This document shows, piece by piece, positions 1 through 12,953 of a DNA stretch of 64,000 nucleotides (position 1 is the stretch's first letter; each line of letters begins with the position of its first letter). The DNA lies in assembly GCA_021771035.1 (NCBI GenBank), contig JAETPU010000007.1, positions 7,658 through 71,657 on the forward strand, given 5' to 3'. The notes beneath the pieces were generated by a model that was given only the letters and a program-made list of their open reading frames with translations, made no database searches and had not been told where the DNA came from. Both the position numbers and the translations under genes were made by a program. Source of the stretch: Marvinbryantia formatexigens (GTDB lineage Bacteria; Bacillota; Clostridia; Oscillospirales; Ruminococcaceae).

Positions 1-614
1 GCGATGAAGGATTCCCGCCGCTGGTTTCAAAGGAACAGTGGGAAGAAGCAGCTTTCCTCAGAGCAGCCAAGGCAAAGCAATATGGCGGCAGCCTACCTGC
101 GGAAATGAAAAAAATCCGCCAGAAGATCTGCTGTGGAAACTGTGGGCAAATCCTCAAGCGAGTCAATATGCGGACAGGATACATCCTGTGGGAATGCCCA
201 AAATGCGGAATCAGCACAGACTACATACCAGACGAACTATTGCTGCAAAGCGTGACTGCCCTATTAAACCGGGCAATTGAAAACCGGGAAAAGCTGAAAC
301 CGGAAGAAAGGCATTGTGAATGCTTATCCATCGAAGTCCTCCGGCTGAATAATGAAATTGACCGGCAGATGACCAATCCCCACGCTAATGCGGATCAACT
401 GCTCCAGCTTATCATGGATTGTGCCAAAGCGAAATACGAAGTCAGCGAAAGCGGTGCTTCGGAGCAGATGACTCAGCTTATACAGGAACGGCTGGCCGAT
501 CAACCCCTGATTTCTGACTTCGACTACGACCTGTTTAGCAGCATAGCAGAGAAAATCCTTATTCAGCCAAATACTTCCGTTCACCTTCAACTGCAAAACG
601 GAAAAGTGATATAA
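1..614 (+). CDS. Large serine recombinase, C-terminal part (5' end lies outside the window)
   Basis: Frame 3 is open from the window edge (DEGFPPLVSKEQWEEAAFLRAAKAKQYGGSLPAEMKKIRQKICCGNCGQ...). A CGNCG...CPKCG zinc ribbon is followed by a helical tail, which is the C-terminal layout of large serine recombinases. It lies directly upstream of a complete recombinase. Confidence 0.6.
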   Translation, partial: DEGFPPLVSKEQWEEAAFLRAAKAKQYGGSLPAEMKKIRQKICCGNCGQILKRVNMRTGYILWECPKCGISTDYIPDELLLQSVTALLNRAIENREKLKPEERHCECLSIEVLRLNNEIDRQMTNPHANADQLLQLIMDCAKAKYEVSESGASEQMTQLIQERLADQPLISDFDYDLFSSIAEKILIQPNTSVHLQLQNGKVI

Positions 615-636
615 CCTACCGGAAAGGAGCATTTAT

Positions 637-2280
637 ATGGAGCCACAAACCCCCATCAGGCAAAAAATCATCCGGGAGATTAAACCCTCCCCAGTGCTGC
701 AGGCCCGAACCCGCAATCACAGGCTAAGGGTAGCGGCTTACTGCCGAGTCAGTACAGAGCAGGAAGAACAGCAGACCAGTATCGAAAACCAAATCACCTA
801 CTATGACGACTTGATTCGCTCGAATCCTGAATGGGAATATGCTGGCGTTTTTTCAGACGATGGCATAAGCGGAACGAGAGATGAGAACCGTCCCGGCTTT
901 ATGGAAATGATAAAGCAGTGCAAAAAGGGAAAAATCGACATGATACTGGCAAAGTCACTATCCCGTTTTTCCCGAAATACCCTTCAATGTATTTCATACA
1001 TACGAATGCTAAAGGACCGGGGCATCATCATCCGGTTTGAAAAAGAAGGGCTGGATACCTCCCGTGTAACCAGCGAAATATTCTTCACATGGACCAGCGC
1101 CTTCGCCCAAGGCGAAAGCGAATCTCTGAGCAACAATGTCAAATGGGGTAAACGAAAAGGCTACAGTCAAGGAAATTTCGCCTTTCCCTATAAGAGCCTG
1201 CTGGGATACAAAAAAGGTGAGGATGGAGAACCGGAGATCATACCGGAAGAAGCAGAGCAGATCAAACTGATATTTAACCTGTTTCTGCTGGGCAGAAGCA
1301 TGCGCCAGATCAAGGAAGCGTTAGAGCGAAGGAATATTCTGACGCCCAAAGGGAAAACAGAATGGTCACTAAGCACGATTGAAAGCATTTTGAAAAATGA
1401 AAAATACATGGGTGATGTACTGCTGCAAAAGAGCTATACCGCTGATTTTCTCAGTAAGAAAAAGAAGAAAAACAATGGAGAACTCACTCAATATTACATC
1501 ACCGACAATCACCCAGCTATCATCCCTCGTGAGGATTTCCTAAACGTCCAGCTGGAACTTACACGCCGGAACAGCAAAAAGAAGGTAACAAAAAAGAAAT
1601 CTAAAAGCGAACTCAGCAGGTACACCAGCCAATATTCCCTAAGCGAAAGGTTAGTGTGCGGAGAATGCGGTTCCATGTACCGCAGAACTACTTGGGCCAA
1701 AAAAGGCAAGAAAAAAGTAGTCTGGCGTTGCATCAGCCGTTTGGAATTCGGAACGAAATACTGTCAGCATTCACCAACCCTTTTAGAAGAAACCCTGCAC
1801 CAAGCAATTTTGCAATGTATTCAAAAAGTGGTTGAGGATAAGGAAGATATCCTGAAAACCCTGCGCGACGTTCAAGAAAACATTATCCTGTTTTCCGGGA
1901 ATCAAGTCACACCGCAATCACTGGAAAAGCAAATAGACAAGCTGCAGCAGGAAATGTCGGCCTTAGTCAAAATCGTTGCCCAAGGCGGCGACAGCGACTT
2001 CTATGCCGCCAAGCTGCGGCAGCTTTCCGAACAAAAAATGGCCCTCACAAACCAACTGCAGGAAATCCAGAAAAAGAAGATGGCTGATCAGGCACAGGAA
2101 TACCAATACCAGCAAGCCCTGCTTTATATCAACAACGAGGAAAACTTGAACCTTACCGAATTTAATGATGACTTTATCCGAAGAATCATTGAACAGGTGA
2201 CCGTCCTATCAGCCACTCAAGTCAGAATACAGTTTGTCGCCGGGTACGAGCAAGACGCATGCCTACCACTGAAGAAATAG
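637..2280 (+). CDS. Large serine recombinase (resolvase/invertase N-terminal domain + recombinase domain + zinc ribbon + coiled coil)
   Basis: 547 aa. Resolvase catalytic domain RVAAYCRVSTEQEEQQTSIENQ ... LAKSLSRFSRN. CGECGSMY...WRC zinc ribbon and a long Q/E-rich coiled-coil tail. GAAAGGAG RBS 7 nt upstream of the ATG. Confidence 0.93.
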   Translation: MEPQTPIRQKIIREIKPSPVLQARTRNHRLRVAAYCRVSTEQEEQQTSIENQITYYDDLIRSNPEWEYAGVFSDDGISGTRDENRPGFMEMIKQCKKGKIDMILAKSLSRFSRNTLQCISYIRMLKDRGIIIRFEKEGLDTSRVTSEIFFTWTSAFAQGESESLSNNVKWGKRKGYSQGNFAFPYKSLLGYKKGEDGEPEIIPEEAEQIKLIFNLFLLGRSMRQIKEALERRNILTPKGKTEWSLSTIESILKNEKYMGDVLLQKSYTADFLSKKKKKNNGELTQYYITDNHPAIIPREDFLNVQLELTRRNSKKKVTKKKSKSELSRYTSQYSLSERLVCGECGSMYRRTTWAKKGKKKVVWRCISRLEFGTKYCQHSPTLLEETLHQAILQCIQKVVEDKEDILKTLRDVQENIILFSGNQVTPQSLEKQIDKLQQEMSALVKIVAQGGDSDFYAAKLRQLSEQKMALTNQLQEIQKKKMADQAQEYQYQQALLYINNEENLNLTEFNDDFIRRIIEQVTVLSATQVRIQFVAGYEQDACLPLKK

Positions 2281-2299
2281 GTTGCCTGCAAAAAAATAG

Positions 2300-2342
2300 C
2301 ACCGATAACCTCAAGCCGGGGGACATCGGTGTTGTTTTTTTT
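2300..2342 (+). terminator. Putative intrinsic terminator after the recombinase gene
   Basis: CACCGAT ... ATCGGTG stem (7 bp, large loop) followed by TTGTTTTTTTT. Confidence 0.5.
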
Positions 2343-2401
2343 GGCTAATTCTTATGGCTTGATCAAAATACAAATATATGAGATTTTCTCTCAATTAAAT
2401 A

Positions 2402-2430
2402 TTGATTTTATTTCGATATGGCGCTATAAT
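2402..2430 (+). promoter_or_regulatory. Sigma-A type promoter of the four-gene cassette
   Basis: TTGATT, a 17 nt spacer, then TATAAT. GGGAGAG RBS and the ATG at 2451 follow about 20 nt downstream. Confidence 0.5.
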
Positions 2431-2450
2431 AGGCTTGGGAGAGTGAAAAA

Positions 2451-3734
2451 ATGTTTACCAAGTTTATTTTTCGTAATTTTAAGTCTTTTCGGGATGATAC
2501 CACACTGGATTTGTCTGCGTCTAAAATCACAGAATATGCCGATCATTTATTTGATACCGGCGTTGAAAAGGTTTTACCGACTATCGCTATCTATGGAGCC
2601 AATGCAAGTGGTAAATCCAACGTTTATCAGGCTTTTGAATATATGAGTCAGTATGTTGCAAACTCCTTTAAATTTGGCGGAGATGACGATTTAAATCAAA
2701 AGTCGGATTTTGACTATATGAAACCTACTCCCTTTTTGTTTGATAGCAAAAGCAAAGATCAAGAGTCTTTATTTGAGGTCTACTTCGTAGATACAAGTAG
2801 TGAATCCATAAAATCATATCAATATGGCTTTGCGGTAAATTCCCAGGGTGTCACACGAGAATGGTTGAATCGAAAAGCTAAGACAGCAAGAGCATATAAG
2901 CGAATTTTTTACCGGGATGGCGAAACATTAGATTTAACTGGAATTCCGGCCAAATACCGTGAAAACTTAGAGGTCTCTTTGGAACGAGAGGTTTTGATCT
3001 CATCCTTAGGAGCAAAGCTGAAAATCCCTAAACTCAAATTTATTAGAGATTGGTTTTTACAAAATGAATTTGCGGATTTCGGGGACCCTGCTGAAAGCTT
3101 CTTTATGTCTCGGTTTTTGCCTGCGGGCTTCGTTGATAGCCAAGAAGTACAGGATAACATTGTAAAATTCTTTACTGCCTTTGATGACTCCATCAAGGGA
3201 TTCCATATAGAAAAGGTTGCTTCCTCTGATTCTGATAAAAAGGAAGAGCACTACACGATAGACGCTATTCACTCCATGATTGATTCGGATGAAACAGCAT
3301 CCATTCCCCTGCGTTTGGAATCTGACGGAACGCTGAAAATGTTTGCATTGTATCCGGTTCTACAAGAGGTGTTAGAACGTGGCAGCGTATTGTTTATAGA
3401 CGAACTTAATGCAAGACTACATCCTTTGCTTGTAAAAAACTTTATTCATACTTTTTTGACTCCTGAATTAAACCCACATAGGGCGCAATTGGTTTTTACG
3501 ACCCATGATACATGGCAGTTATCTACTGACATCCTCAGACGTGATGAAATTTATTTTACACAGAAGGATAAGCAGGGAATTTCGCATTTATATTCATTGG
3601 CAGATTGTGTTGACGAAGATGGAATTAAAATCCGGAAGGATGAAAATTTTGAGAAGAACTATTTGAATGGGAAGTATGAGGGAATACCATGCATCCGAGA
3701 GTTTCACATTACCGAACTTAGTAAAGATAGTTAA
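2451..3734 (+). CDS. ABC/SMC-like AAA ATPase (AAA_15/AAA_21-type), cassette gene 1
   Basis: 427 aa. Walker A GANASGKS, signature-like ESDGTLKM, Walker B VLFIDELNARLHP, H-loop FTTHD. Same ATPase class as Septu PtuA, PARIS AriA and AbiL-like proteins (class-level statement only). Confidence 0.85.
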   Translation: MFTKFIFRNFKSFRDDTTLDLSASKITEYADHLFDTGVEKVLPTIAIYGANASGKSNVYQAFEYMSQYVANSFKFGGDDDLNQKSDFDYMKPTPFLFDSKSKDQESLFEVYFVDTSSESIKSYQYGFAVNSQGVTREWLNRKAKTARAYKRIFYRDGETLDLTGIPAKYRENLEVSLEREVLISSLGAKLKIPKLKFIRDWFLQNEFADFGDPAESFFMSRFLPAGFVDSQEVQDNIVKFFTAFDDSIKGFHIEKVASSDSDKKEEHYTIDAIHSMIDSDETASIPLRLESDGTLKMFALYPVLQEVLERGSVLFIDELNARLHPLLVKNFIHTFLTPELNPHRAQLVFTTHDTWQLSTDILRRDEIYFTQKDKQGISHLYSLADCVDEDGIKIRKDENFEKNYLNGKYEGIPCIREFHITELSKDS

Positions 3735-3808
3735 TGGATCCATATTATTGATCCGATTTTAAAATAGTTAAATTAAACCTTGTGTAAATAGAAAGGAAAG
3801 GTATAGTT

Positions 3809-4741
3809 ATGAAATTAAAAGCGTTGAGTCATTATGATGGCGATATGGACACAAGATTTGGGGATTGTATCCTTCTATATGATTCTAATACCCTTATTGT
3901 ATACGATTGTGGTCACACTAAGCATTCAGAAACAATAAAATCATTCTTGCAATCTACTCCATCAGTTTCTCAGATACATATTGTGATTTCCCATAACGAC
4001 AGCGATCACACAGATGGTGTAATAGATTTGCTTGATTATTTGAACGATAACAATTACAACACGTCGGTATACTCATCCTTATATCTAAAGCATACAAAAG
4101 AAGTCATGGAGTTACTTGATGATGATAGAAGAACCAAATCGGCGACCAAGGAACACATTCTGGAAAATTTTGATAATATCGCAGAAATCATTGAAAAAGC
4201 TGAGGACTATTCCTTTACTATCGTAGATGCAACGGTTGATACAACTGTTGCTTCCGCAAAAATTGTGGGACCAACAGAAGAAGAATTCGTAGCAGTAGTT
4301 GCCCAAGCAATTAAAGATGATACCGTCACCCAAATTGAAGGAGAAACGGTTATGAATGCAGCCAGCATTCAGCTAAAATCTACATTAACTGATGAAAAGG
4401 TGGTTTTGCTATGCGGAGATGCCTCTCCGTCATATTTGCACGATCTTGACAGCTACGATATTATACAGTTACCACATCACGGCCAGTTAGATGATGCTAA
4501 AGCTATTTTTCAAGAACTCGGTGATTCCGCATATAGAAAGACATTTCTAATCTCAGATAATACTGGATCTGCTGGAAATAGTGGTGGTTCAGTTAAGCTA
4601 AAGAGTTATATGCAAGAAGAATATTATACGGCTGCGCTGAACACTCAGGATGGAGTAATTGAATTGCCTGATGATGTTAGTAGCCACATCGGGATTCAAA
4701 CGCAAAGGAGAACTTATTACGGTGATTTGGGTAGTATCTAA
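3809..4741 (+). CDS. Metallo-beta-lactamase-fold hydrolase, ComEC/Rec2-like motif order, variant metal motif; cassette gene 2
   Basis: 310 aa. Motif order is GDCILL..VYDCGH, then ISHNDSDHTDG (at the HxHxDH position but reading H-N-D-S-D-H), then LLCGDAS, then LPHHGQ. GAAAGGAAAGG RBS upstream. Confidence 0.7.
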   Translation: MKLKALSHYDGDMDTRFGDCILLYDSNTLIVYDCGHTKHSETIKSFLQSTPSVSQIHIVISHNDSDHTDGVIDLLDYLNDNNYNTSVYSSLYLKHTKEVMELLDDDRRTKSATKEHILENFDNIAEIIEKAEDYSFTIVDATVDTTVASAKIVGPTEEEFVAVVAQAIKDDTVTQIEGETVMNAASIQLKSTLTDEKVVLLCGDASPSYLHDLDSYDIIQLPHHGQLDDAKAIFQELGDSAYRKTFLISDNTGSAGNSGGSVKLKSYMQEEYYTAALNTQDGVIELPDDVSSHIGIQTQRRTYYGDLGSI

Positions 4742-5237
4742 ATCTATCTGCAGCTCTTCAGAAGAGTTGGATTGTAGACGCCAGTATATTAGGGATGTAA
4801 CAAAAGCTGAAGTGTCTTGTTGGTCAGAATCAAATTGTGAATATAAACGGTTTGGCCTTAAACGAACTTGTGCTTTTTATGTTTGCCAGTCTAAAAAGGG
4901 TGAGTATGGAATGATAATAACTGCACATATTCACGAAATAGGGGCCATATTTGAAAGTATAGCATCCAGAAAACGTGCTATAGTTGTTATTAACTCCTGT
5001 GAGATCGAAAAGACTATTTCAAGTGTATTTTTGTCCATAGTAAGGCAAAAGAACAATTCTTCTGAATTGTTCTATGCATACCAAGAAAGAGAGAGCCACG
5101 GGCTACTTGTCAATTATGCTGACAACCTTGGAACTTTTGGTTTCAGCACCACCCTATCTGAACGGATGCTATTTAGGCAAAGGCACGAGGGCTTTATAAA
5201 GGCTATTAGGAATTCATTCCAAAAGGTGGTGCCATAA
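4722..5237 (+). CDS. Hypothetical Cys-rich protein, cassette gene 3 (start uncertain; GTG 4722 preferred, ATG near 4912 possible)
   Basis: The frame stays open through AT-rich DNA from 4659. AAGGAG lies 11 nt before GTG 4722, overlapping the MBL gene by 20 nt. The N-terminus has six Cys (CSSSEELDC...CWSESNC...CAFYVC). No family recognised. Confidence 0.45.
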   Translation: MIWVVSKSICSSSEELDCRRQYIRDVTKAEVSCWSESNCEYKRFGLKRTCAFYVCQSKKGEYGMIITAHIHEIGAIFESIASRKRAIVVINSCEIEKTISSVFLSIVRQKNNSSELFYAYQERESHGLLVNYADNLGTFGFSTTLSERMLFRQRHEGFIKAIRNSFQKVVP

Positions 5238-5761
5238 TGAATCAAATACTGGAAAAATTAGGTTCATATCAAATTTTAACCAACCTTTTGCCAGGAGCTT
5301 TCTTTGGCGTAAGTCTTAAATTTTTCTTTGGCATAAATATTTCAACTGAGAATTTTGGAGAAGATATTCTGATATACTATTTAATCGGATTGATTATCAA
5401 TCGCGTTGGTGCATTAATCACAGAACCTTTTTTGAAGAAAATTCGTTTTATAAAATTCGCACCATACGCAGAATTTGTGCAAGCACTAAAAAGTGATTCA
5501 AAGATAGATATATTATCAGAAATCAATAATCTTTTTCGTTCTATATTAACTTGTATCGTGTTATTACCTTTAGCAAGACTTGGGCAAGTACTATCTTTAA
5601 ATTGGTTGTGGTTTTCTAAAAACTGGAAATGGTTTGTCATAATTTTTATTTTAGTTTTGTTTTTATTTGCATATCGACAACAGAGCAGCTACATCTGTAA
5701 ACGAGTAATGATAAGCAATAACAAGACTAAAGAGGGCAAGAGTGCCACGAAAAATAATTAA
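5237..5761 (+). CDS. Hypothetical membrane protein (about 4 TM segments), cassette gene 4
   Basis: 174 aa. The ATG overlaps the preceding TAA by 1 nt (TAATG). Hydrophobic stretches: ILTNLLPGAFFGVSLKFFFGI, ILIYYLIGLIINRVGALI, ILTCIVLLPLARLGQVL, WFVIIFILVLFLFAY. Confidence 0.6.
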   Translation: MNQILEKLGSYQILTNLLPGAFFGVSLKFFFGINISTENFGEDILIYYLIGLIINRVGALITEPFLKKIRFIKFAPYAEFVQALKSDSKIDILSEINNLFRSILTCIVLLPLARLGQVLSLNWLWFSKNWKWFVIIFILVLFLFAYRQQSSYICKRVMISNNKTKEGKSATKNN

Positions 5762-6071
5762 ATAAATTTGAATGTGAAAATTTTATTGTTGATGGTCATT
5801 TGAAAGGGGTATCTAAACCGTTCGCCCCTTCCATGTCGGGGCAAAGTTCGCTTTGCTCCGACTTATTTTTTGTCTGCAACAGAAAATAAATCCTCCGCCC
5901 GCTTCCTTGCGCCTCCTCTTACGCAAAAAGTCACGCTGGGCTCACCTGTTCGGTTGTAAACGCCCTCACGACGGCTCACTGTCGCTGCGAACTTTTTGCG
6001 GGTTCGCGAGGGTTCAAATCCACCTTTGAAAAAATATCAGAGGTTCTGTTTGTCTCACCCTGCCATATGTT

Positions 6072-6117
6072 GAAAGAAGCTGATTGTTTTACAACAATCG
6101 GCTTCTTTCGCGTTTTG
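6072..6117 (+). terminator. Long hairpin, terminator-like
   Basis: GAAAGAAGCTGATTGTT / AACAATCGGCTTCTTTC, a 17-bp stem with one G-U pair and a 4-nt loop, followed by GCGTTTTG. Confidence 0.45.
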
Positions 6118-6645
6118 TCCGATAGATATGATGACGTTCGCTTCACGCAAGAGCGGGACGGGCGTCAAAGCGATGTCCAACCAAAACGGCTGTATTGGGG
6201 TAAGGGAGAATCTTTGGCATCATGGGGAGGACAGCGCCGGTATTCTTTCAGCAGAGCCGGCATACAGTCCGGGGCTGCTGGGCAAATCCCGGGTAGTATA
6301 GCTTTTTTCTATAGCAAGTTATGAATTCTAAGTATTTGCTATTTGTATGGTACAGACGTATACTGAAGTTAAAAGAACAGGAACGGTATCCGCTGTACTG
6401 TGGGAAACCGGAAAAAGGCAGGGCTCAACGGTGGCTGTCCTGGTTGGGGTTTATAGCTCTGCCAATACCGTGGTGGGGCAGCCTCTATTCTTGGCTGCCG
6501 CGGCGAATGCTGTCCCGGCGGGAATCTGGAAATACGCGGTTTGGCGGCGTGCAGGGTTTATTCTATGATTGGAAAGCCCGGGCTCCTATCTTAGTGCACG
6601 GTGAAAAAACAGCTGCCAAACAGTGAATGGGGGAGAAAGGAAAAG

Positions 6646-6877
6646 ATGCGAAATTCACCCTCGGCTCAGGCGCTCCTTGAGAATTTGCGGGATGCGGGAT
6701 GCGGGATGCGGTTCCGGCCTGGTGGAGAGATTTTTAACTCTTGAGGAAAGCAACGATGTAAAAGGCCAGCTGGACCTGCTGTGTGCGCATCGGGAACAGC
6801 TTATAAAAAGGGTGCATCGGGAGGAAGCGAAAATTTGCTGCCTGGATTATTTGACATACCAGCTGAAGAAAAAATAA
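6646..6877 (+). pseudogene. Small conserved-looking protein (LRDAGC...LVERFL...CLDYLxY motif) split by a frameshift inside a 7-bp tandem repeat
   Basis: ATG 6646 has a strong GGGGGAGAAAGG RBS and encodes MRNSPSAQALLENLRDAGCG, then stops at 6744. The +1 frame continues as RDAGCGSGLVERFLTLEESNDVKGQLDLLCAHREQLIKRVHREEAKICCLDYLTYQLKKK to 6877. Removing one GCGGGAT unit joins both halves. Confidence 0.5.
6687..6711. repeat. GCGGGAT x3.6 tandem repeat
   Basis: Read directly: gcgggat gcgggat gcgggat gcgg. Confidence 0.95.
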
Positions 6878-6912
6878 ACCACAACTGAAAGGAAATAAAG
6901 GAGGAAAGCGCA

Positions 6913-7785
6913 ATGACTGCTTATGAAAATCAGACCTTCGATATGGAGAGGGCGCTTTATGGGATGCATGGGCTTACCGTGCGGGATTGTGCGTTTGACG
7001 GCCCGGCTGACGGGGAAAGCGCTTTCAAAGAGTGCGGGGATGTTCAGGTGGATCGCTGCTATTTCAATCTGCGCTATCCCTTCTGGCACGATCACAAACT
7101 GACAATCCGCAATTCCCAGATGACGGAACTCTGCCGGGCCGCCCTGTGGTATTCCCATGATATTGAGATTGCGGATACCAAGCTTTACGGCATCAAGGCC
7201 CTGCGGGAGTGCAGCCAGGTGAAGATGCGGGGATGTGAACTCATCTCTGCGGAATTCGGATGGTCTGTACAGGATTTGGAGATGGAGGACTGTACGGCTC
7301 AGAGCGAATATTTTATGATGCGCGCCGCGCGTCTGCGGTTTAAAAATGTACAGCTGAAGGGGAAGTATTCCTTTCAGTATATTCAAGATTCTGTTTTTGA
7401 AAACTGCGTTTTTGATACGAAGGATGCCTTCTGGCACGCCAAAAACGTGTTGGTCCGGGACAGCGTAGTCAAAGGGGAATACCTGGCCTGGTATTGTGAG
7501 AATGTCACCTTCGAGCGCTGTAAGATCATCGGGACACAGCCTCTGTGCTACTGCAAGGGACTCAGGCTCATCGACTGCGAAATGGAGGGGGCGGATTTCG
7601 CGTTTGAAAAAAGCGAGGTTCAGGCCACGGTCACCACTCCGGTCATCAGCATTAAAAATCCCAGTTCCGGTTGTATCACGGTTCCCGCGGTGGGTGAAAT
7701 AATCCGGGATGACTGCAACGCCAAGGGCGAAGTGATAGTCAATGGGCAGCCGGCAGACAACGGAGCTTCCGGCGCCTGCGCATAA
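6913..7785 (+). CDS. Parallel beta-helix-like repeat protein, probably DUF3737 family
   Basis: 290 aa. AAGGAGGAAAG RBS. Repetitive C/F/W-containing approximately 22-aa turns (RDCAFDG, VDRCYFN, IRNSQM, MRGCELI, FENCVFD, FERCKII, LIDCEME). The DUF3737 assignment is from memory of the family and needs an HMM check. Confidence 0.6.
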   Translation: MTAYENQTFDMERALYGMHGLTVRDCAFDGPADGESAFKECGDVQVDRCYFNLRYPFWHDHKLTIRNSQMTELCRAALWYSHDIEIADTKLYGIKALRECSQVKMRGCELISAEFGWSVQDLEMEDCTAQSEYFMMRAARLRFKNVQLKGKYSFQYIQDSVFENCVFDTKDAFWHAKNVLVRDSVVKGEYLAWYCENVTFERCKIIGTQPLCYCKGLRLIDCEMEGADFAFEKSEVQATVTTPVISIKNPSSGCITVPAVGEIIRDDCNAKGEVIVNGQPADNGASGACA

Positions 7786-7884
7786 ACGGCGTAAAACGAG
7801 AGTTCCGAACTTGCCGGGCGGGAGCATACCGCCCTGTGGGGATGGCCGGATGCGGATGACGCAAAGGGAAAGGAAGGGGCAGGA

Positions 7885-8490
7885 TTGAAACGATTCTTTG
7901 CGGCGGCGCTAGGCGTTCTGCTGTCGCTGTGCCTGGCCGCCTGTTCGGGAACTCAGGGGCGGCACAAGGCGCCTTTTGATTCAATGCCGTGCACCCAGGG
8001 AGAGGACAGCGGAATTTCCGTGCCGGTTTCCCAGGGGAACGCCGCCCAGCAGGACTGCCGGACGCCCGGCGGGACCTCACAGGGGCAAACCATTACAAAC
8101 CAGGCGCCGGAGGAGCCGGCAAAAACGGAGGACGCCGCGGTGAAACTCAACATTCAAGTTGGACCAAGGCTCTTTTCCGCCGTTTTGGAGGACAATGCGG
8201 CGGCGCGTGCGTTTGCCGGGATGCTGCGGGAAGCGCCGTTGGTTCTGCAGATGCGGGAGTATTCCGGATTTGAGAAGGTGGGCTCCCTGGGCAGAAGCCT
8301 TCCCGCCAGTGATCGCCGTACTACTGCTCAACCGGGCGATATCGTTCTTTATAACGGCGACCAAATTGTTTTATTGTATGGCTCCAATTCCTGGAACTAT
8401 ACAAGGCTTGGCACAGTCGAGAGCCTGTCCGGATGGGAGGAAGCCCTCGGCAGCGGGGATGTGAGCGTAACCTTTTGGGCTGCGGACTGA
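7885..8490 (+). CDS. Lipoprotein with C-terminal cyclophilin-like domain
   Basis: TTG start after a GGAAAGGAAGGGG RBS. Lipobox LSLCLAAC-SG. The C-terminal approximately 115 aa (VKLNIQVG..FSAVLEDNAAARAF...GDIVLYNGDQIVLLYG...YTRLG) matches the cyclophilin-like small-domain family pattern. Confidence 0.7.
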   Translation: MKRFFAAALGVLLSLCLAACSGTQGRHKAPFDSMPCTQGEDSGISVPVSQGNAAQQDCRTPGGTSQGQTITNQAPEEPAKTEDAAVKLNIQVGPRLFSAVLEDNAAARAFAGMLREAPLVLQMREYSGFEKVGSLGRSLPASDRRTTAQPGDIVLYNGDQIVLLYGSNSWNYTRLGTVESLSGWEEALGSGDVSVTFWAAD

Positions 8491-8665
8491 TCGCCTGATG
8501 CGTTGAGGCTGTCGTGAACCGCCGGCCGCGGGCGAGTCTGGGAGGGATACTGTATTGCGTCTGCTGTCTGCGAACACCGGCGATTGCTGTATAAACTGTA
8601 TGGCTTGCATAATTATTTAGAGTATATTGATAGAATTTGTTGACGATGCTGCAATTATATGCTAT
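8391..8665. repeat. Direct repeat copy 1 (3' end of the cyclophilin-like gene plus downstream intergenic/promoter region)
   Basis: Aligns without indels to 17176..17450 at a constant offset of 8785 nt, with about 15 mismatches by hand count. Confidence 0.9.
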
Positions 8666-8668
8666 GGT
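8640..8668 (+). promoter_or_regulatory. Promoter inside repeat copy 1
   Basis: TTGACG, 17 nt spacer, TATGGT. It sits just upstream of the MutS-like pair. The homologous site in copy 2 is TTGACA-17-TATTCT. Confidence 0.4.
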
Positions 8669-8682
8669 TTCTAGCATAGGCG

Positions 8683-10272
8683 GTGGTAAATTTGTCAGTG
8701 AATTCGATTGTTTGGGATAGAGAAACTCACCCCTCGCGTCATGCGGCGGCGGGAGGGACTGAAGCCGATGCGCTCAGGGAATTGGGAATTCCCCAGCTGC
8801 TGTTCAGCCGCAGGGAACTCAGCGATGAGGAAATCCTCGGTTTTCTCAATTGCAAAGGCGGGGATATTGTTCTAAGGCAGGGGGTATTAGAGGAGGCGCT
8901 TCAAAAGGAAGAACTCTCCTCGATTTTTGACGCTCTCCTTCAAAGTATCAGCAAAATAAAACGCTATCTTAAAGAATACAGCATCAAAGATCAGGAAAAA
9001 ATCGTATGCTTCCAGGCCCTGTACCTGCTATTGAGGGAATATGTGCAGATTATTGGGCAGTCCAGAGAACGCTTAGAGTCCGCCGGTGTGAAAAGCCGGG
9101 GGCTGACTAGGCTTTTACACCTATTTAAGGAGTTGTGGGACAGCCAGAATCTCAATGCGCTGCAGGAGAGTTTGTCCCATATCGGGGAGTACTGGAATCC
9201 TCCCAAGATATGTGAATTCGGCCTGAATATTGATTCCGGCTTTCATATCAAGGAAATCACCGTCACCAAGCTGTTCCCGCAGCGGGAATTTGCCGAATCC
9301 GCCTGCTTTTCCAGGCCGACCTATCTGCACAGGGGAACGTCCACCGCCAAACTGCAGTACTACTATTTTAAAAAGCTCAAGAGCCTGCTCAATACAGAGC
9401 TTGGCAGATTGCAGCGGGATCTGAAACCGTTTTCTCCCGAGCTGGTATCGGCGCTGCTGCAGCTGGAGCGGGAATTCACTCTGTATTCGGCGGGGATCCG
9501 TTGGTGCCAAAAGATTCAGCGCAAAAACGCCGTTTTTTGCTTTCCAGCCGTTTCACAGCATACTATCCGATGCCGTGGCATGGCCCTTCCCGAAACAGTG
9601 GAGGCTTTGGAGACTGCGGACAGATACACCGTCGATTTGAAAGACGGGGAAACTGTCTGCATCGTTACGGGGGCGGGCAGCGCCTATAAGGATGGATTTG
9701 CGGCGGCGCTTGGGGCAAACCAGGTGTTGTTTCAGCTGGGGTTCCCGGTGTGCGCCTCAGAGGCGGCCCTTCCGGTTCGGGAGCGTGTATTTACTATTTT
9801 CGCCCAGGGAGAGAGCGAGGACGAGTCCCGGTTCGCCCGGGAGGCCAGATTGACTGCTCAAATTGAGCGGTGCGGCGGGGAAAGCCTTGTTTTGCTCCGG
9901 GATGCCTATACCTCCACCAATGCCCGGGAGGGGGAGAAAATCGCCGCCGAATTGATTGAGGCTGTCACAAAAACCGGAAGCATCGTGGTGTGCTCCACCC
10001 ATTTTGCGAAGCTGGTGTCAGCCCTTGCGGACAAAAACATCCCCTGCGCCAGCTATGTGGCGGCTTCGGGAACGCAGGAGGATGGCTGCGTTGGGAATAT
10101 GCTTCTTCGCGGGGAGCCCTATGCGCTCAGTTATGCCAGGCAGCTTGCCCAAAAGCACAGTTTCACCGTTGAGGCTATCCTGGAAATCCTCAAATCCAAG
10201 GATATGAGCGCAGAGACCAGCGCGAGGCTGCTCAGGGAACTGGCCCTGGCTGAGGAAGGGGGCGCGTTGTGA
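8683..10272 (+). CDS. MutS-domain-V-like protein with degenerate P-loop (start codon uncertain)
   Basis: 529 aa. The C-terminal region aligns with the next gene's ATPase domain. It reads TGAGSAYKDG where the partner has TGANQGGKTV, LLRDAY at Walker B, and CSTHF at the H-loop position. No mismatch-binding or Smr motifs were seen. Confidence 0.65.
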   Translation: MVNLSVNSIVWDRETHPSRHAAAGGTEADALRELGIPQLLFSRRELSDEEILGFLNCKGGDIVLRQGVLEEALQKEELSSIFDALLQSISKIKRYLKEYSIKDQEKIVCFQALYLLLREYVQIIGQSRERLESAGVKSRGLTRLLHLFKELWDSQNLNALQESLSHIGEYWNPPKICEFGLNIDSGFHIKEITVTKLFPQREFAESACFSRPTYLHRGTSTAKLQYYYFKKLKSLLNTELGRLQRDLKPFSPELVSALLQLEREFTLYSAGIRWCQKIQRKNAVFCFPAVSQHTIRCRGMALPETVEALETADRYTVDLKDGETVCIVTGAGSAYKDGFAAALGANQVLFQLGFPVCASEAALPVRERVFTIFAQGESEDESRFAREARLTAQIERCGGESLVLLRDAYTSTNAREGEKIAAELIEAVTKTGSIVVCSTHFAKLVSALADKNIPCASYVAASGTQEDGCVGNMLLRGEPYALSYARQLAQKHSFTVEAILEILKSKDMSAETSARLLRELALAEEGGAL

Positions 10273-11813
10273 TGGTAAAGACCTCCAAGACCATACTCCA
10301 GGACTTGGAGCTGGATGAAATTATAGATTGGTTTGAGATAAAACTGCCCAATTCGGATGATTATCTATCCTTCCACCGCGCCGCAATTACAGACTACTTA
10401 TCATCGGATCTGGAGATCCTGCGCCAAAGGCAGAAGGCCATTGGGCTTTTGCTGGAAAATGAACCCCTGTGCCAGGCGCTGTACAGCCTGTTGGACTTAC
10501 ATGCGCAGGTACGGCAGCTGAGTTCGAAGCACGGCAGCGATGACAGGGCGTCCATTTCCAATTATATTGATGCGAGACGCCAGGTCCGGTCGCTTTTGCC
10601 CCAACTGCACGGCCTTCTCAATGACACATGGGGAATCCAGGTGTTTGAGCGGCTCAAAGCAGAGCTGGAAGAACTGTTTGAGAGCGGCGCCCTGGACAGG
10701 ATAGACCAGTGGGATAAAACCTATGTGGAACAGGAGCTTGTGCCTAGGAGTATGCGGGTTCTCTTGGCTGTGGACGAATTGTTTTTGATCCGGGAATTTC
10801 AGATCCGGGATTTTTCCCAGGGCACCTATGAGAACACTCTGACTGGATGTGTCTATTCGCTGACAAGGGAGAAGGCGCTGGAAAAGCTGAATGTTTTTTC
10901 CGGCAAGGGGGATCAGATTGTCAATGCGCTGTTTTCCGGGCACCTGCAGGATCCCTATGGCGATAACACGATATTCAATGACGCCCTGGATCAGAATATC
11001 GCGCAGTTTGAACAGGATACCTATCTGTTATTGTCTTCTTGCTTCCGGTTCTTGGAACAGGCAGAGGAGGATATTGTTTTTCTGCTGAAATGTGCGGAGT
11101 TCTGCAGGAAAGCCCAAAGCCTGGGCACGGCGGCTTGCTTTCCAACCCTGTGTGAAACGCGGGACAAGGTGTATGCGGCCAGGGAGGCGTATTCCTTTGC
11201 CCTGGCGGACAGGATGAAAAAAAGAGGATGGAATCTTTCAGACACGCTGGTGAAAAATCCAGTTGAGTTCGACCGGCCCAATTCGGCGCTGGTGGTGACT
11301 GGCGCCAACCAGGGTGGAAAAACCGTATACCTGCAAACCATTGGGATGATTCAGTTTCTCGCACAGCTGGGGGTAATGGTTCCCGCCAGCCAGGCACAGG
11401 TGAGCCCTGTGGATGCCATTGTCACGATTTTTGCCGGTCAGGAGGAGAAACTGGGCCAGGGCCAGCTGTCCGCTGAGTTTGATTTGCTGCTGCAATCCCT
11501 GCGCCAGGCCAACGGGAATTCCCTGATTCTGCTCAACGAGATTTTTACGCTCTGCGATCCCCAGGATGGTGTGCTCTTCAGCCGCCAGGCCCTTTATGCC
11601 CTGATGGCGATGGGGGCAAGAAGCGTGTGGGTTACGCATCTCTTTGAACTGGCGCTTCCGCTTGAGGAAGGCGATCCCATCACCAGCCTGGTGATGGCGG
11701 TCACAGACCAGGATCACCGCCCTGTCTACCGAATCCGGCGCTCTCCCCCGGACTATCGGAGCTATGCCGCGGAGTCCATTAAAAGCTTTCAGAATCAGGA
11801 ACGCCCGGTTTGA
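10269..11813 (+). CDS. MutS family protein (domain V ABC ATPase only)
   Basis: 514 aa. Overlaps the upstream stop (GTGATG). Walker A GANQGGKT and QTIGMIQFLAQLG..VPA as in MutS/MutS2. Walker B reads LILLNEIF (Asn in place of Asp). WVTHLFEL H-loop. Confidence 0.8.
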   Translation: MMVKTSKTILQDLELDEIIDWFEIKLPNSDDYLSFHRAAITDYLSSDLEILRQRQKAIGLLLENEPLCQALYSLLDLHAQVRQLSSKHGSDDRASISNYIDARRQVRSLLPQLHGLLNDTWGIQVFERLKAELEELFESGALDRIDQWDKTYVEQELVPRSMRVLLAVDELFLIREFQIRDFSQGTYENTLTGCVYSLTREKALEKLNVFSGKGDQIVNALFSGHLQDPYGDNTIFNDALDQNIAQFEQDTYLLLSSCFRFLEQAEEDIVFLLKCAEFCRKAQSLGTAACFPTLCETRDKVYAAREAYSFALADRMKKRGWNLSDTLVKNPVEFDRPNSALVVTGANQGGKTVYLQTIGMIQFLAQLGVMVPASQAQVSPVDAIVTIFAGQEEKLGQGQLSAEFDLLLQSLRQANGNSLILLNEIFTLCDPQDGVLFSRQALYALMAMGARSVWVTHLFELALPLEEGDPITSLVMAVTDQDHRPVYRIRRSPPDYRSYAAESIKSFQNQERPV

Positions 11814-11846
11814 GAAAACCGGGCGTTCCTGATTCTGGTTTGTTTT
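11790..11846. terminator. Strong intrinsic terminator between convergent genes
   Basis: Perfect 22-bp stem CAGAATCAGGAACGCCCGGTTT / AAACCGGGCGTTCCTGATTCTG with a GAGA loop, then GTTTGTTTT. Confidence 0.85.
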
Positions 11847-11981
11847 CGGAGAGTTTGGCTTGGGGATTAAACCGGAAGCCGACGTAGCAGCACAGCGATG
11901 GCGGTGGGATAATCAGGTGGGAAAGGGCGGGCACGGCAACCCTCATAGCCCCGTCTGGTATCTGCACACGGGGAATTTTGC

Positions 11982-12953
11982 CTACAGGATGCCCGCGGTT
12001 CGCCAGCGGATCGACTCGACCCAATCCAACGCGGCATCTTTCAGCCGTTTGGGCTGCGGCGTAAAAAATTCCAGGGTAGGCTCTCCCTTCTTGATGTTCC
12101 ATAAACCGGCAACCTGCCCGTTTACGGCTATGGTGGGCAGGCAGATTCCCGATTTCATAATTACCGCGCGTTTATATTCCGGCGGCAGAACGGCGCTGCG
12201 CTCTGTGTAGGATACGAGTACCGGATCAAAACCGGACAGCAGGGTTAACTCGGGGATTTCACCCATGTTGGCTCCGTCCTCCACATAGTAATAGGTAGAG
12301 CCCCCATATTCCAAACGTGCATATTCGTCCAGGTTGATTTGGGCAAGCAGCTTCTTGTCCTCTTTGCGAAGCCCGAAGAACCATACGGCGTCGGCAAGGG
12401 TAGCTGGACCGTAAGCGGAGAAATACCGGCTCAGCAGGCTGGGCAGCACCTCCTTTGGCGTCTGAGTGGGCTCGGCGCTGATGAGATCAAAATCGCGGCT
12501 GGTCATATCCCGAAACGCCACCAGCCCTTTTTGTGCCAGTCCTACGAAAACGCCGCCCCATGGGCTGAAGGCCCTCTCGATGAACCCGTGGTCATACCGA
12601 TCGGCGAACAAGTGCCGGAACTGGGCGCGGGAAAACACGCCGTCCTCCATAGCACGCAGTACCTCCAGTTCAAAATCGCTGAGCGGCTCACGGTTTGCGT
12701 GCAGGGTCAACAGGTCCGGCAGGTCCTCATAGACTACCCCATGCAGGGCATGGTGAACCCAGGTTTTGGTCAATGCCGTTTTCCAGCCCGAGATATTTGC
12801 ACCCCGGATAAGGGCGGAGAACACCACATTCCGGTGAAACCAGCAGTGCAGCCCGAGAAGCTCGTGGGAAAGCTGCGTGATGTCCTCGCATTGACGGGAT
12901 AAATATAGCCCGTGCATCCGCCTTTGCAGAATTTGCTCCGTTATTTTATCCAT
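11982..12953 (-). CDS. Winged-helix DNA-binding protein, AlkZ/YcaQ-like (HTH_42) DNA glycosylase family
   Basis: 323 aa. GGAGGAAAGG RBS. The length and C-terminal pattern (...GFDPVLVSY...VNGQVAGLWNIKKGEPTLEFF) are typical of the family. The N-terminal region reads GLHCW where AlkZ/YcaQ proteins carry the Q-x-Q or Q-x-D catalytic motif (alignment by eye, uncertain). Confidence 0.65.
   Translation of the reverse strand: MDKITEQILQRRMHGLYLSRQCEDITQLSHELLGLHCWFHRNVVFSALIRGANISGWKTALTKTWVHHALHGVVYEDLPDLLTLHANREPLSDFELEVLRAMEDGVFSRAQFRHLFADRYDHGFIERAFSPWGGVFVGLAQKGLVAFRDMTSRDFDLISAEPTQTPKEVLPSLLSRYFSAYGPATLADAVWFFGLRKEDKKLLAQINLDEYARLEYGGSTYYYVEDGANMGEIPELTLLSGFDPVLVSYTERSAVLPPEYKRAVIMKSGICLPTIAVNGQVAGLWNIKKGEPTLEFFTPQPKRLKDAALDWVESIRWRTAGIL

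Follow-up and report, generated by a model that had tools for sequence, protein, structure and literature searches.

The 64,000-nucleotide stretch of Marvinbryantia formatexigens DNA analyzed here (the window) carries near its left end an AT-rich block of four plus-strand genes, designated g1 to g4, of which g2, g3, and g4 are referred to together as the trio (Table 1). The block encodes an ABC ATPase of the AbiLi family, a ComEC-like metallo-beta-lactamase-fold (MBL) hydrolase, a small protein without recognized relatives outside its own family, and a small membrane protein of the PDC-M48A family. We read it, with moderate confidence, as two modules: g1 with its promoter, a swappable AbiLi-type leader, and an autonomous trio. 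By sequence comparison, the trio fits best as a divergent variant, with three genes, of the catalogued but unvalidated candidate system PDC-M48, led in this case by a modular AbiLi-type ATPase. Loci fetched for comparison carry L-numbers.

The genes are packed as an earlier sequence-only reading of the window had described, with 74 nucleotides (nt) separating g1 from g2, g2 and g3 overlapping by 20 nt, and g3 and g4 sharing a single nt (TAATG). The GTG start of g3 is preceded by AAGGAG, and the lengths of its homologues, 165 to 190 amino acids (aa), fit this choice of start. That reading had also assigned the block a promoter of its own, and the site in question scored highest in the region, with 10 of 12 positions matching; it accompanies g1 in sister loci, where DNA homology begins at approximately 2268 to 2379. 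The abrupt drop in GC content that it reported was real within the block (0.364 for positions 2290 to 5833, against 0.536 for 5834 to 12000), but the contrast with the recombinase genes on the left (0.465 for 1 to 2289) was weaker than had been stated.

Table 1. Positions of the genes and signals discussed in the text
Feature	Position	Strand	Description
Middle recombinase gene, 3' part	105-614	+	281 aa, Recombinase domain only; weak Zn_ribbon_recom match
Large serine recombinase	637-2280	+	547 aa, last of array; Resolvase 2.4e-33, Recombinase 2.2e-24, Zn_ribbon_recom 3.4e-11
Terminator-like hairpin and T-run	2315-2330	+	Downstream of large serine recombinase gene
Promoter-like site	2402-2430	+	Sigma-70 type, TTGATT-17-TATAAT
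g1	2451-3734	+	427 aa; AbiLi-family ABC ATPase
g2	3809-4741	+	310 aa; ComEC-like MBL hydrolase, predicted metal-dependent nuclease
g3	4722-5237	+	171 aa; GTG start; small stand-alone family
g4	5237-5761	+	174 aa; small polytopic membrane protein, PDC-M48A family
Terminal 72 nt of element	5762-5833		Right end at about 5833; identity to all eight near-identical loci stops at 5831-5833
Terminator-like hairpin	5835-5862	+	In host flank, outside element

The trio and the PDC-M48 candidate family

The g4 protein, already taken for a small polytopic membrane protein from its sequence, has three clear hydrophobic segments and a fourth, weaker one. It gave no Pfam match, and it matched phrog_11864 (3.6e-31) and, over nearly the whole profile, the PADLOC family PDC-M48A (PDLC04670; 3.8e-50, 168 bits, residues 1 to 162 on profile positions 1 to 162 of 164). 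PDC denotes the phage defence candidates of PADLOC, and PDC-M48 (PADLOC-DB v2) consists of the M48A membrane protein and the MBL hydrolase M48B. Searching with a profile built from g4 homologues yielded 80 genome loci spread over many phyla, in which open reading frames were called and clustered, and arrangements were counted on 81 loci. An MBL-fold gene lay on the same strand, adjacent to the g4 homologue or one gene away, in 75 of the 81. The canonical PDC-M48 order, g4 followed by MBL, was the most common (43 loci), while MBL preceded g4 directly in 10, with g3 in between in 16 (plus the window), and with another gene in between in 4; 2 loci had an MBL gene on both sides. The other intervening gene was a CBASS-type E2 (CBASS, cyclic oligonucleotide-based antiphage signaling system) in L043 (9312-9992; 1.4e-43) and L067 (2148-2567; 4.6e-26) and a ThiF(E1)-JAB fusion in L038 and L047. 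Fusions of this type, 700 to 790 aa long, come after the MBL gene in approximately 15 of the 80 M48A loci. M48A, MBL, and E1-JAB were seen together in the roughly 10 kb surrounding the g4 homologue in L033, L038, L047, L049, L056, L059, L068, L074, L076, and L077.

Pairs of M48A and MBL also occur on phages. Escherichia phage D8 (L133, OM475426.1, 29200-30788) carries an M48A homologue that shares 30% identity with g4, together with a convergent MBL gene, right after the replication gene gpA, and the same pair follows gpA in the P2-like phages 11W, 12W, and P24E6b. In P2-like phages, the interval from gpA to gpQ has been described as a hotspot for defence genes (PMC9122126).

The window thus shares with PDC-M48 a full-length M48A member, the MBL as constant partner, and a family that occurs on phages and mobile elements. 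It differs in gene order (MBL-g3-M48A rather than the canonical A before B), in an MBL whose subfamily is divergent (its M48B score is 44 bits, whereas canonical partners reach 350 to 540), and in the extra conserved gene g3 and a Gly-tailed MBL, a tail that the two-gene systems do not have. The combination, which had not been recognized as a named system from the sequence alone, is half covered by PADLOC-DB entries: g1 is AbiLi, g4 is PDC-M48A, and g2 is weakly PDC-M48B.

The order of the trio was kept in all 22 other loci examined, comprising 16 genome loci, four distant loci, and L096 and L103. The 16 genome loci had identical spacing, with identities of 45 to 60% for g4, 52 to 65% for g2, and 32 to 40% for g3. 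The four distant contigs were reached through three g3 members of 26 to 34% identity; on each, g3 lay between an MBL gene and a g4 homologue, and the MBLs matched the trio MBL profile at 1e-103 to 1e-129. Genes near the trio included AbiL, MADS components, methyltransferases, recombinases and integrases, and type IV secretion system genes, among them coupling proteins. Homologues of all four genes of the block were found in defence or mobile-element contexts and none in a metabolic or competence context, which agrees with the setting expected for a defence cassette.

The MBL-fold motif order reported for g2, and its identity as a ComEC-like hydrolase, were borne out by a Pfam Lactamase_B match (2.3e-5) and by the metal motifs D33, H62xD64xD66H67, D204, and H223H224, which are conserved across all MBL groups compared. 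Further matches were to PDC-M48B (3.3e-12), MBL-type LmuA (7.2e-11), and RTasMBL (1e-8) in PADLOC and to Avs1a (5.9e-7) in NCBIfam. The pattern SHxDxDH ... GD ... PHHG in g2 is one that we take to be of the ComEC type. Published statements agree, and they describe defence-associated ComEC-like MBLs as Zn-dependent double-stranded DNA nucleases, gated proenzymes that are freed by partner proteases and combined with many sensors (PMC12799240, PMC12642450). Since the metal motifs are conserved and the related defence MBLs are nucleases, g2 is a predicted nuclease.

With the HamM (HamMAB), Avs1a, and CanC ("canu") modules of these reports, g2 would share the role of a separate, upstream defence MBL of ComEC type, expected to be a gated DNase and combined with sensors of different kinds, Hachiman and ABC-type ATPases among them (PMC12799240, PMC12642450). 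In contrast to the protease-gated systems, no trypsin-, caspase-, or subtilisin-like protease was found in g1, g3, or g4, the g3 model matched no protease fold, g2 is shorter (310 aa), and a membrane protein is the obligate partner. Unlike the MBL nuclease domain of ComEC in natural competence, g2 has no channel or OB domain. Likeness to Lamassu is limited to the g2 match to the MBL-type LmuA model; LmuB was not among the 25 best PADLOC matches of g1, and g3 and g4 gave no match to LmuC or to the MC component of ABC-3C systems.

The C-terminal tail of the MBL varied with the gene content of the locus. All 19 distinct trio MBLs ended in a variable linker, a hydrophobic-Gly motif within the last 9 residues, and then 0 to 6 further residues (...YYGDLG-SI in the window, ...VRLG-EMDYR in L001, ...HVLG-Y in L129, and ...CVG in L130). 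MBLs adjoining E1-JAB fusions had a Gly within the last 8 residues in 12 of 12 cases (e.g., ...PRAG-RN), whereas the MBL partners of two-gene PDC-M48 had one in 16 of 47, approximately the chance level, and many of these ended in the acidic PYPE(D/E)QEE; all of these counts compare clades rather than phylogenetically independent samples. A conserved LGEMD in g2 tails was considered as an artifact of the overlapping start and ribosome-binding site of g3, and this was ruled out, as the ATG lies in the g2 frame and not in the g3 frame. A comparable pattern is known from cGAS, whose C-terminal Gly is conserved only in operons with Cap2 and Cap3 (PMC10097602). Because the Gly tail tracks the presence of an extra gene in the same manner, the analogy suggests that this gene (E2, E2-E1-JAB, or g3) may act on the MBL C terminus, which would amount to tail-directed control of a nuclease. 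It likewise suggests that a Gly-tailed MBL beside E1-JAB or E2 could itself be the conjugated or processed substrate, like cGAS in type II CBASS.

No match to g3 was found in Pfam, PADLOC, or NCBIfam, in a PDB sequence-profile search, or by tblastn against plasmids. The family is rare: a hidden Markov model search of 1.84 billion representative proteins returned 88 clusters, all of stand-alone proteins of about 165 to 190 aa. Residues R19, H69, C93, and Q121 are invariant, and a GxFGFxT(S/T)xSER motif is invariant or nearly so; H69 and C93 follow the strands at 63 to 67 and 87 to 91, in the motifs fITAH and vvxNxC. Of the 7 Cys residues of g3, the family conserves no others than C55 and C93, so the Cys-rich Zn sensor of the earlier reading is not a property of the family. 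An AlphaFold2 model built from 45 family members had an alpha/beta fold with high confidence (predicted local distance difference test [pLDDT], 94.9; predicted TM-score, 0.90), while a previous model from 10 sequences was uninformative (pLDDT, 65). Foldseek searches with the better model gave no meaningful match, either in the PDB (best E value, 0.014; TM-score, 0.25) or in BFVD (best E value, 0.06). By this model, g3 may have a new fold, and neither an E2 nor a caspase fold, nor any other that has been solved, is recognizable in it.

The position of g3 nevertheless recalls that of ubiquitin-like machinery. It occupies the place of the E2 in L043 and L067 and that of E1-JAB in L038 and L047. 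It also contains one Cys and one His that are both invariant, and it accompanies an MBL with a Gly tail. These features would fit a divergent E2-like (UBC-fold) or caspase-like protein, with the cassette as a cryptic member of the E2/E1/JAB-MBL ("6A-MBL") or protease-MBL zymogen systems. The likeness extends to M48A homologues beside MBL and E1-JAB or, in two loci, MBL-E2, whose MBLs also carry a Gly near the C terminus. However, E1 (ThiF), E2, and JAB are all absent from the window, unlike L033, L043, and L067, neither the PDB nor BFVD offered the well-modeled structure a match to an E2, a caspase, or anything else, and no sequence match of that kind was obtained. An hhalign comparison with the E2 sets of the loci gave a probability below 1%, a result from shallow E2 alignments and with a weak control. 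On the fold and PDB profile searches and this comparison, we rejected the idea that g3 is an enzyme of E2 or caspase type, and we regard this explanation of the cassette as very unlikely.

An AbiLi-type ATPase with exchangeable cargo

The assignment of g1 to the AAA_21/AbiL-type ATPases, first made from its motifs, was confirmed by matches to Pfam AAA_21 (9e-30) and AAA_15 and to PADLOC AbiLi (1.5e-85, residues 1 to 423), with a weaker match to AriA (3.1e-29). All four motifs of the complete ATPase set were located: GANASGKS (residues 49 to 56), ESDGTLKM (290 to 297), LFIDE (314 to 318), and TTHD (350 to 353), with K55 in Walker A, D317/E318 in Walker B, and an H-loop motif. In AbiL and PARIS, the sensor is an ABC ATPase and its partner is a TOPRIM nuclease (PMC13064643). 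The window resembles AbiL of Lactococcus, PARIS, and RloAB in its full-length AbiLi-type ATPase, but AbiLii/RloB was not matched by g2, g3, or g4, the gene that follows g1 is an MBL gene (canonical pairs are present in L092, L056, and L008), and no AriB or DUF4435 match was found within the cassette.

Relatives of g1 number in the thousands, and 41 loci (L088 to L128) were fetched and compared. At identities of up to 62%, the relatives are mostly followed, after a gap of 2 nt, by the RloB/AbiLii gene, as in canonical AbiL, and RloB was also present at L126, a fragment 67% identical to g1 over residues 268 to 419. None of the relatives at 69 to 100% identity had RloB. Their downstream genes encoded SAVED, CD-NTase, and E2 of CBASS; CD-NTase, E2, and an effector with four transmembrane segments; HamA and HamB (Hachiman); a 998-aa ResIII helicase; or the trio (L095, L096, and L103). 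Relatives as close as 93% head CBASS operons. The junction between g1 and the cargo also depended on the cargo, at -17 to +10 nt for CBASS and Hachiman, 67 to 74 nt for the trio, and 115 nt for the helicase. Compared with CBASS-carrying sisters, DNA homology began near 2268, so that the promoter is covered, and ended at 3688-3711, 8 to 15 codons before the g1 stop. Because the homology covers the promoter and g1 and then breaks, g1 appears to be a leader, a conserved left arm to which different defence cargos can be joined. By these comparisons, g1 is a putative modular leader gene and not a dedicated partner of the trio. We also think it somewhat probable that its sub-clade has lost the RloB/TOPRIM partner and serves as the first gene of operons with an interchangeable downstream part. 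No description of such a RloB-less AbiLi leader was found in the literature searched, which left out the ABC ATPase classification of Krishnan et al. 2020.

The main alternative is a single obligate four-component system, in which the ATPase is the sensor, the MBL replaces the TOPRIM/RloB effector, g3 is an adaptor, and g4 is a membrane effector. In 14 of the 16 trio loci that could be assessed, an AAA_21/AAA_15 ATPase gene stands immediately upstream, and ABC ATPases accounted for 13 of 113 proteins encoded next to the trio; some of these loci are close relatives of one another, so that the counts are not of independent cases. Moreover, RloB is lacking in two unrelated ATPase lineages beside the trio (the g1 clade and the genes of L001 to L003 and L007), the block has a single strong promoter with no terminator between g1 and g2, and L095, L096, and L103 preserve the order of g1 and the trio at identities as low as 87% for g1 and 58% for g4. 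On the other hand, the ATPases adjoining the trio belonged to at least three lineages and orientations, some with their own RloB nuclease. The g1-clade ATPases are co-directional with the trio; AbiLi-like ATPases about 26% identical to g1 and without RloB are divergently transcribed (L001 to L003 and L007); complete AbiLi-AbiLii pairs, each a full AbiL system with its own effector, stand beside the trio in L008 to L012 and L014 and also in L056; and a 440-aa ATPase of a different, AAA_15/HEC-01A-like family with DUF3892 has further genes between it and the trio in L005 (6144-8526), L013, and L034. No ATPase adjoins the trio in L004, L015, or L129, and two-gene PDC-M48 in other phyla has such an ATPase in 2 of 64 loci. 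Together with the CBASS operons led by close relatives of g1, these observations make the four-component system possible but not probable, and replacement of the TOPRIM partner by the MBL, as first proposed, is possible as well. Of the four-gene unit described from the sequence alone, g2-g3-g4 held as a fixed group, whereas g1 was not co-conserved with it and exchanges cargo at 69 to 93% identity. In L005, L013, and L034, a 71-aa DUF3892 protein is encoded just upstream of the MBL gene.

Several points weigh against the division into a leader and an autonomous trio that we prefer. The frequency of ATPases next to the trio indicates that they may be more than optional neighbors. The g1-g2 gap contains no significant hairpin (z = -0.39), which makes co-transcription plausible, and the four genes may form one transcript. 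The link to PDC-M48 is itself to a candidate whose name appeared in no paper of the literature searched, and g2 matched M48B with 43.9 bits over residues 27 to 190 only, whereas the canonical partners score 351 to 539 bits. The likeness to Avs1a is also distant, since g2 reached 28.6 bits against a cutoff of 420 for the NCBIfam Avs1a equivalog and no Avs1a model was among its PADLOC matches, and g2 does not belong to the Avs1a/HamM clade. Finally, the clade-level tail counts carry less weight than independent cases would, and an action of g3 on the g2 tail would be deduced from position and conservation, as g3 has no recognizable protease or E2 fold.

Proposed mechanism

A defence role for the trio would follow from the membership of g4 in PDC-M48A, the M48A-MBL pairs in the P2 hotspot, the CBASS and Hachiman modules in the same slot of sister loci, and the defence-type neighbors of the trio. 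From these comparisons, we infer anti-phage activity in which g2 would be the effector, a ComEC-like, metal-dependent DNase. The membrane protein g4 might hold g2 in check, position or tether it at the membrane, or act as a second, membrane effector. In this scheme, g3 would be a thiol (His/Cys) enzyme of new fold that licenses g2 through its conserved hydrophobic-Gly tail, filling the operon position that E2 or E2-E1-JAB holds in sister systems. The ATPase g1 probably supplies transcription and could add an ATP-dependent layer of infection sensing or regulation, and any cooperation of this kind would not be obligate for the trio.

The most far-reaching version combines these ideas: g3 would found a family of new-fold thiol enzymes that cleave or covalently capture the g2 tail without E1, E2, or JAB and so license a membrane-associated nuclease, having independently taken over the function of ubiquitin-like machinery at this operon slot, and the RloB-less AbiLi ATPase would be a general plug-in first gene, a sensor or regulator, for CBASS, Hachiman, and the trio. 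Taken as a whole, this version is rather doubtful. If the inferences made for the locus hold, they would provide a functional handle on a widespread candidate system, as M48A and MBL occur in many bacterial phyla and in P2-like phages of E. coli. The presence of g3 at the slot of ubiquitin-like conjugation would point to a new, tail-based control of a suicide or anti-DNA nuclease. An ABC ATPase lineage that shed its own nuclease and became the shared leader of unrelated immune modules would, in addition, bear on how mobile elements layer and exchange defences.

The mobile element and its chromosomal surroundings

Positions 2290 to 5833 are the terminal cargo of a chromosomally integrated mobile element of the serine-recombinase type. 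Eight loci (L081 to L087 and L095) were 96 to 99.9% identical to the window from its first base (L084 from position 960) up to 5831-5833, and beyond 5833 their right flanks differed, with a phage integrase, a fucosidase, MatE, or Mu-F/barstar. Since near-identical loci diverge at the same point into different flanks, the cassette is the last cargo of an integrative element. Upstream, the element in these loci encodes a helicase, a small resolvase, a SHOCT protein, and three genes of the serine-recombinase family. Tandem serine recombinases had been noted before the block and are indeed present, but the full array in L081 to L087 consists of three genes (514, 281, and 547 aa) rather than two; the window begins inside the middle one, its first base corresponding to position 4764 of L081. 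The element-end sequence (5756-5840) was sought downstream of the cargo in sister loci and found only in the 98%-identical L095. The exact g4 protein is present on many metagenome contigs, and a megablast search of positions 1 to 8000 against plasmid and phage collections found no near-identical DNA.

That the cassette is the outermost part of an integrative element, beside recombinases, bears on a further explanation, a nonimmune role in addiction (toxin-antitoxin-like) or in entry or transfer exclusion for the element, with the MBL as toxin and g3 and g4 as its controllers. Many trio loci lie beside recombinases, integrases, and type IV coupling proteins, and a potentially toxic nuclease with small partners suits toxin-antitoxin logic. 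However, the same slot carries bona fide anti-phage CBASS and Hachiman systems in sister loci, M48A-MBL pairs sit in the P2 gpA-gpQ hotspot, and PADLOC lists the family as a phage defence candidate. We consider this role unlikely, and it is weak as an alternative, as defence and addiction are not mutually exclusive.

The element was seen in at least 8 genomic contexts, inserted at several distinct chromosomal sites in gut-type metagenomes, and its left end lies beyond the window. A T-arm-like string in the host flank, GGTTCAAATCC at 6011-6021, was considered as a tRNA or attachment site and dropped, because ARAGORN and Rfam scans of the whole window returned no tRNA, tmRNA, or known RNA. A second strong terminator-like hairpin lies in the host flank at 6071-6110. 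To the right of 5833, the sequence is ordinary chromosome, with DUF3737, two MutS_V proteins, RecA, DnaG, and Lon. The two MutS_V genes (8683-11813) are tandem paralogues of 529 and 514 aa with overlapping stop and start, and they contain only the ATPase region of MutS, domain V.

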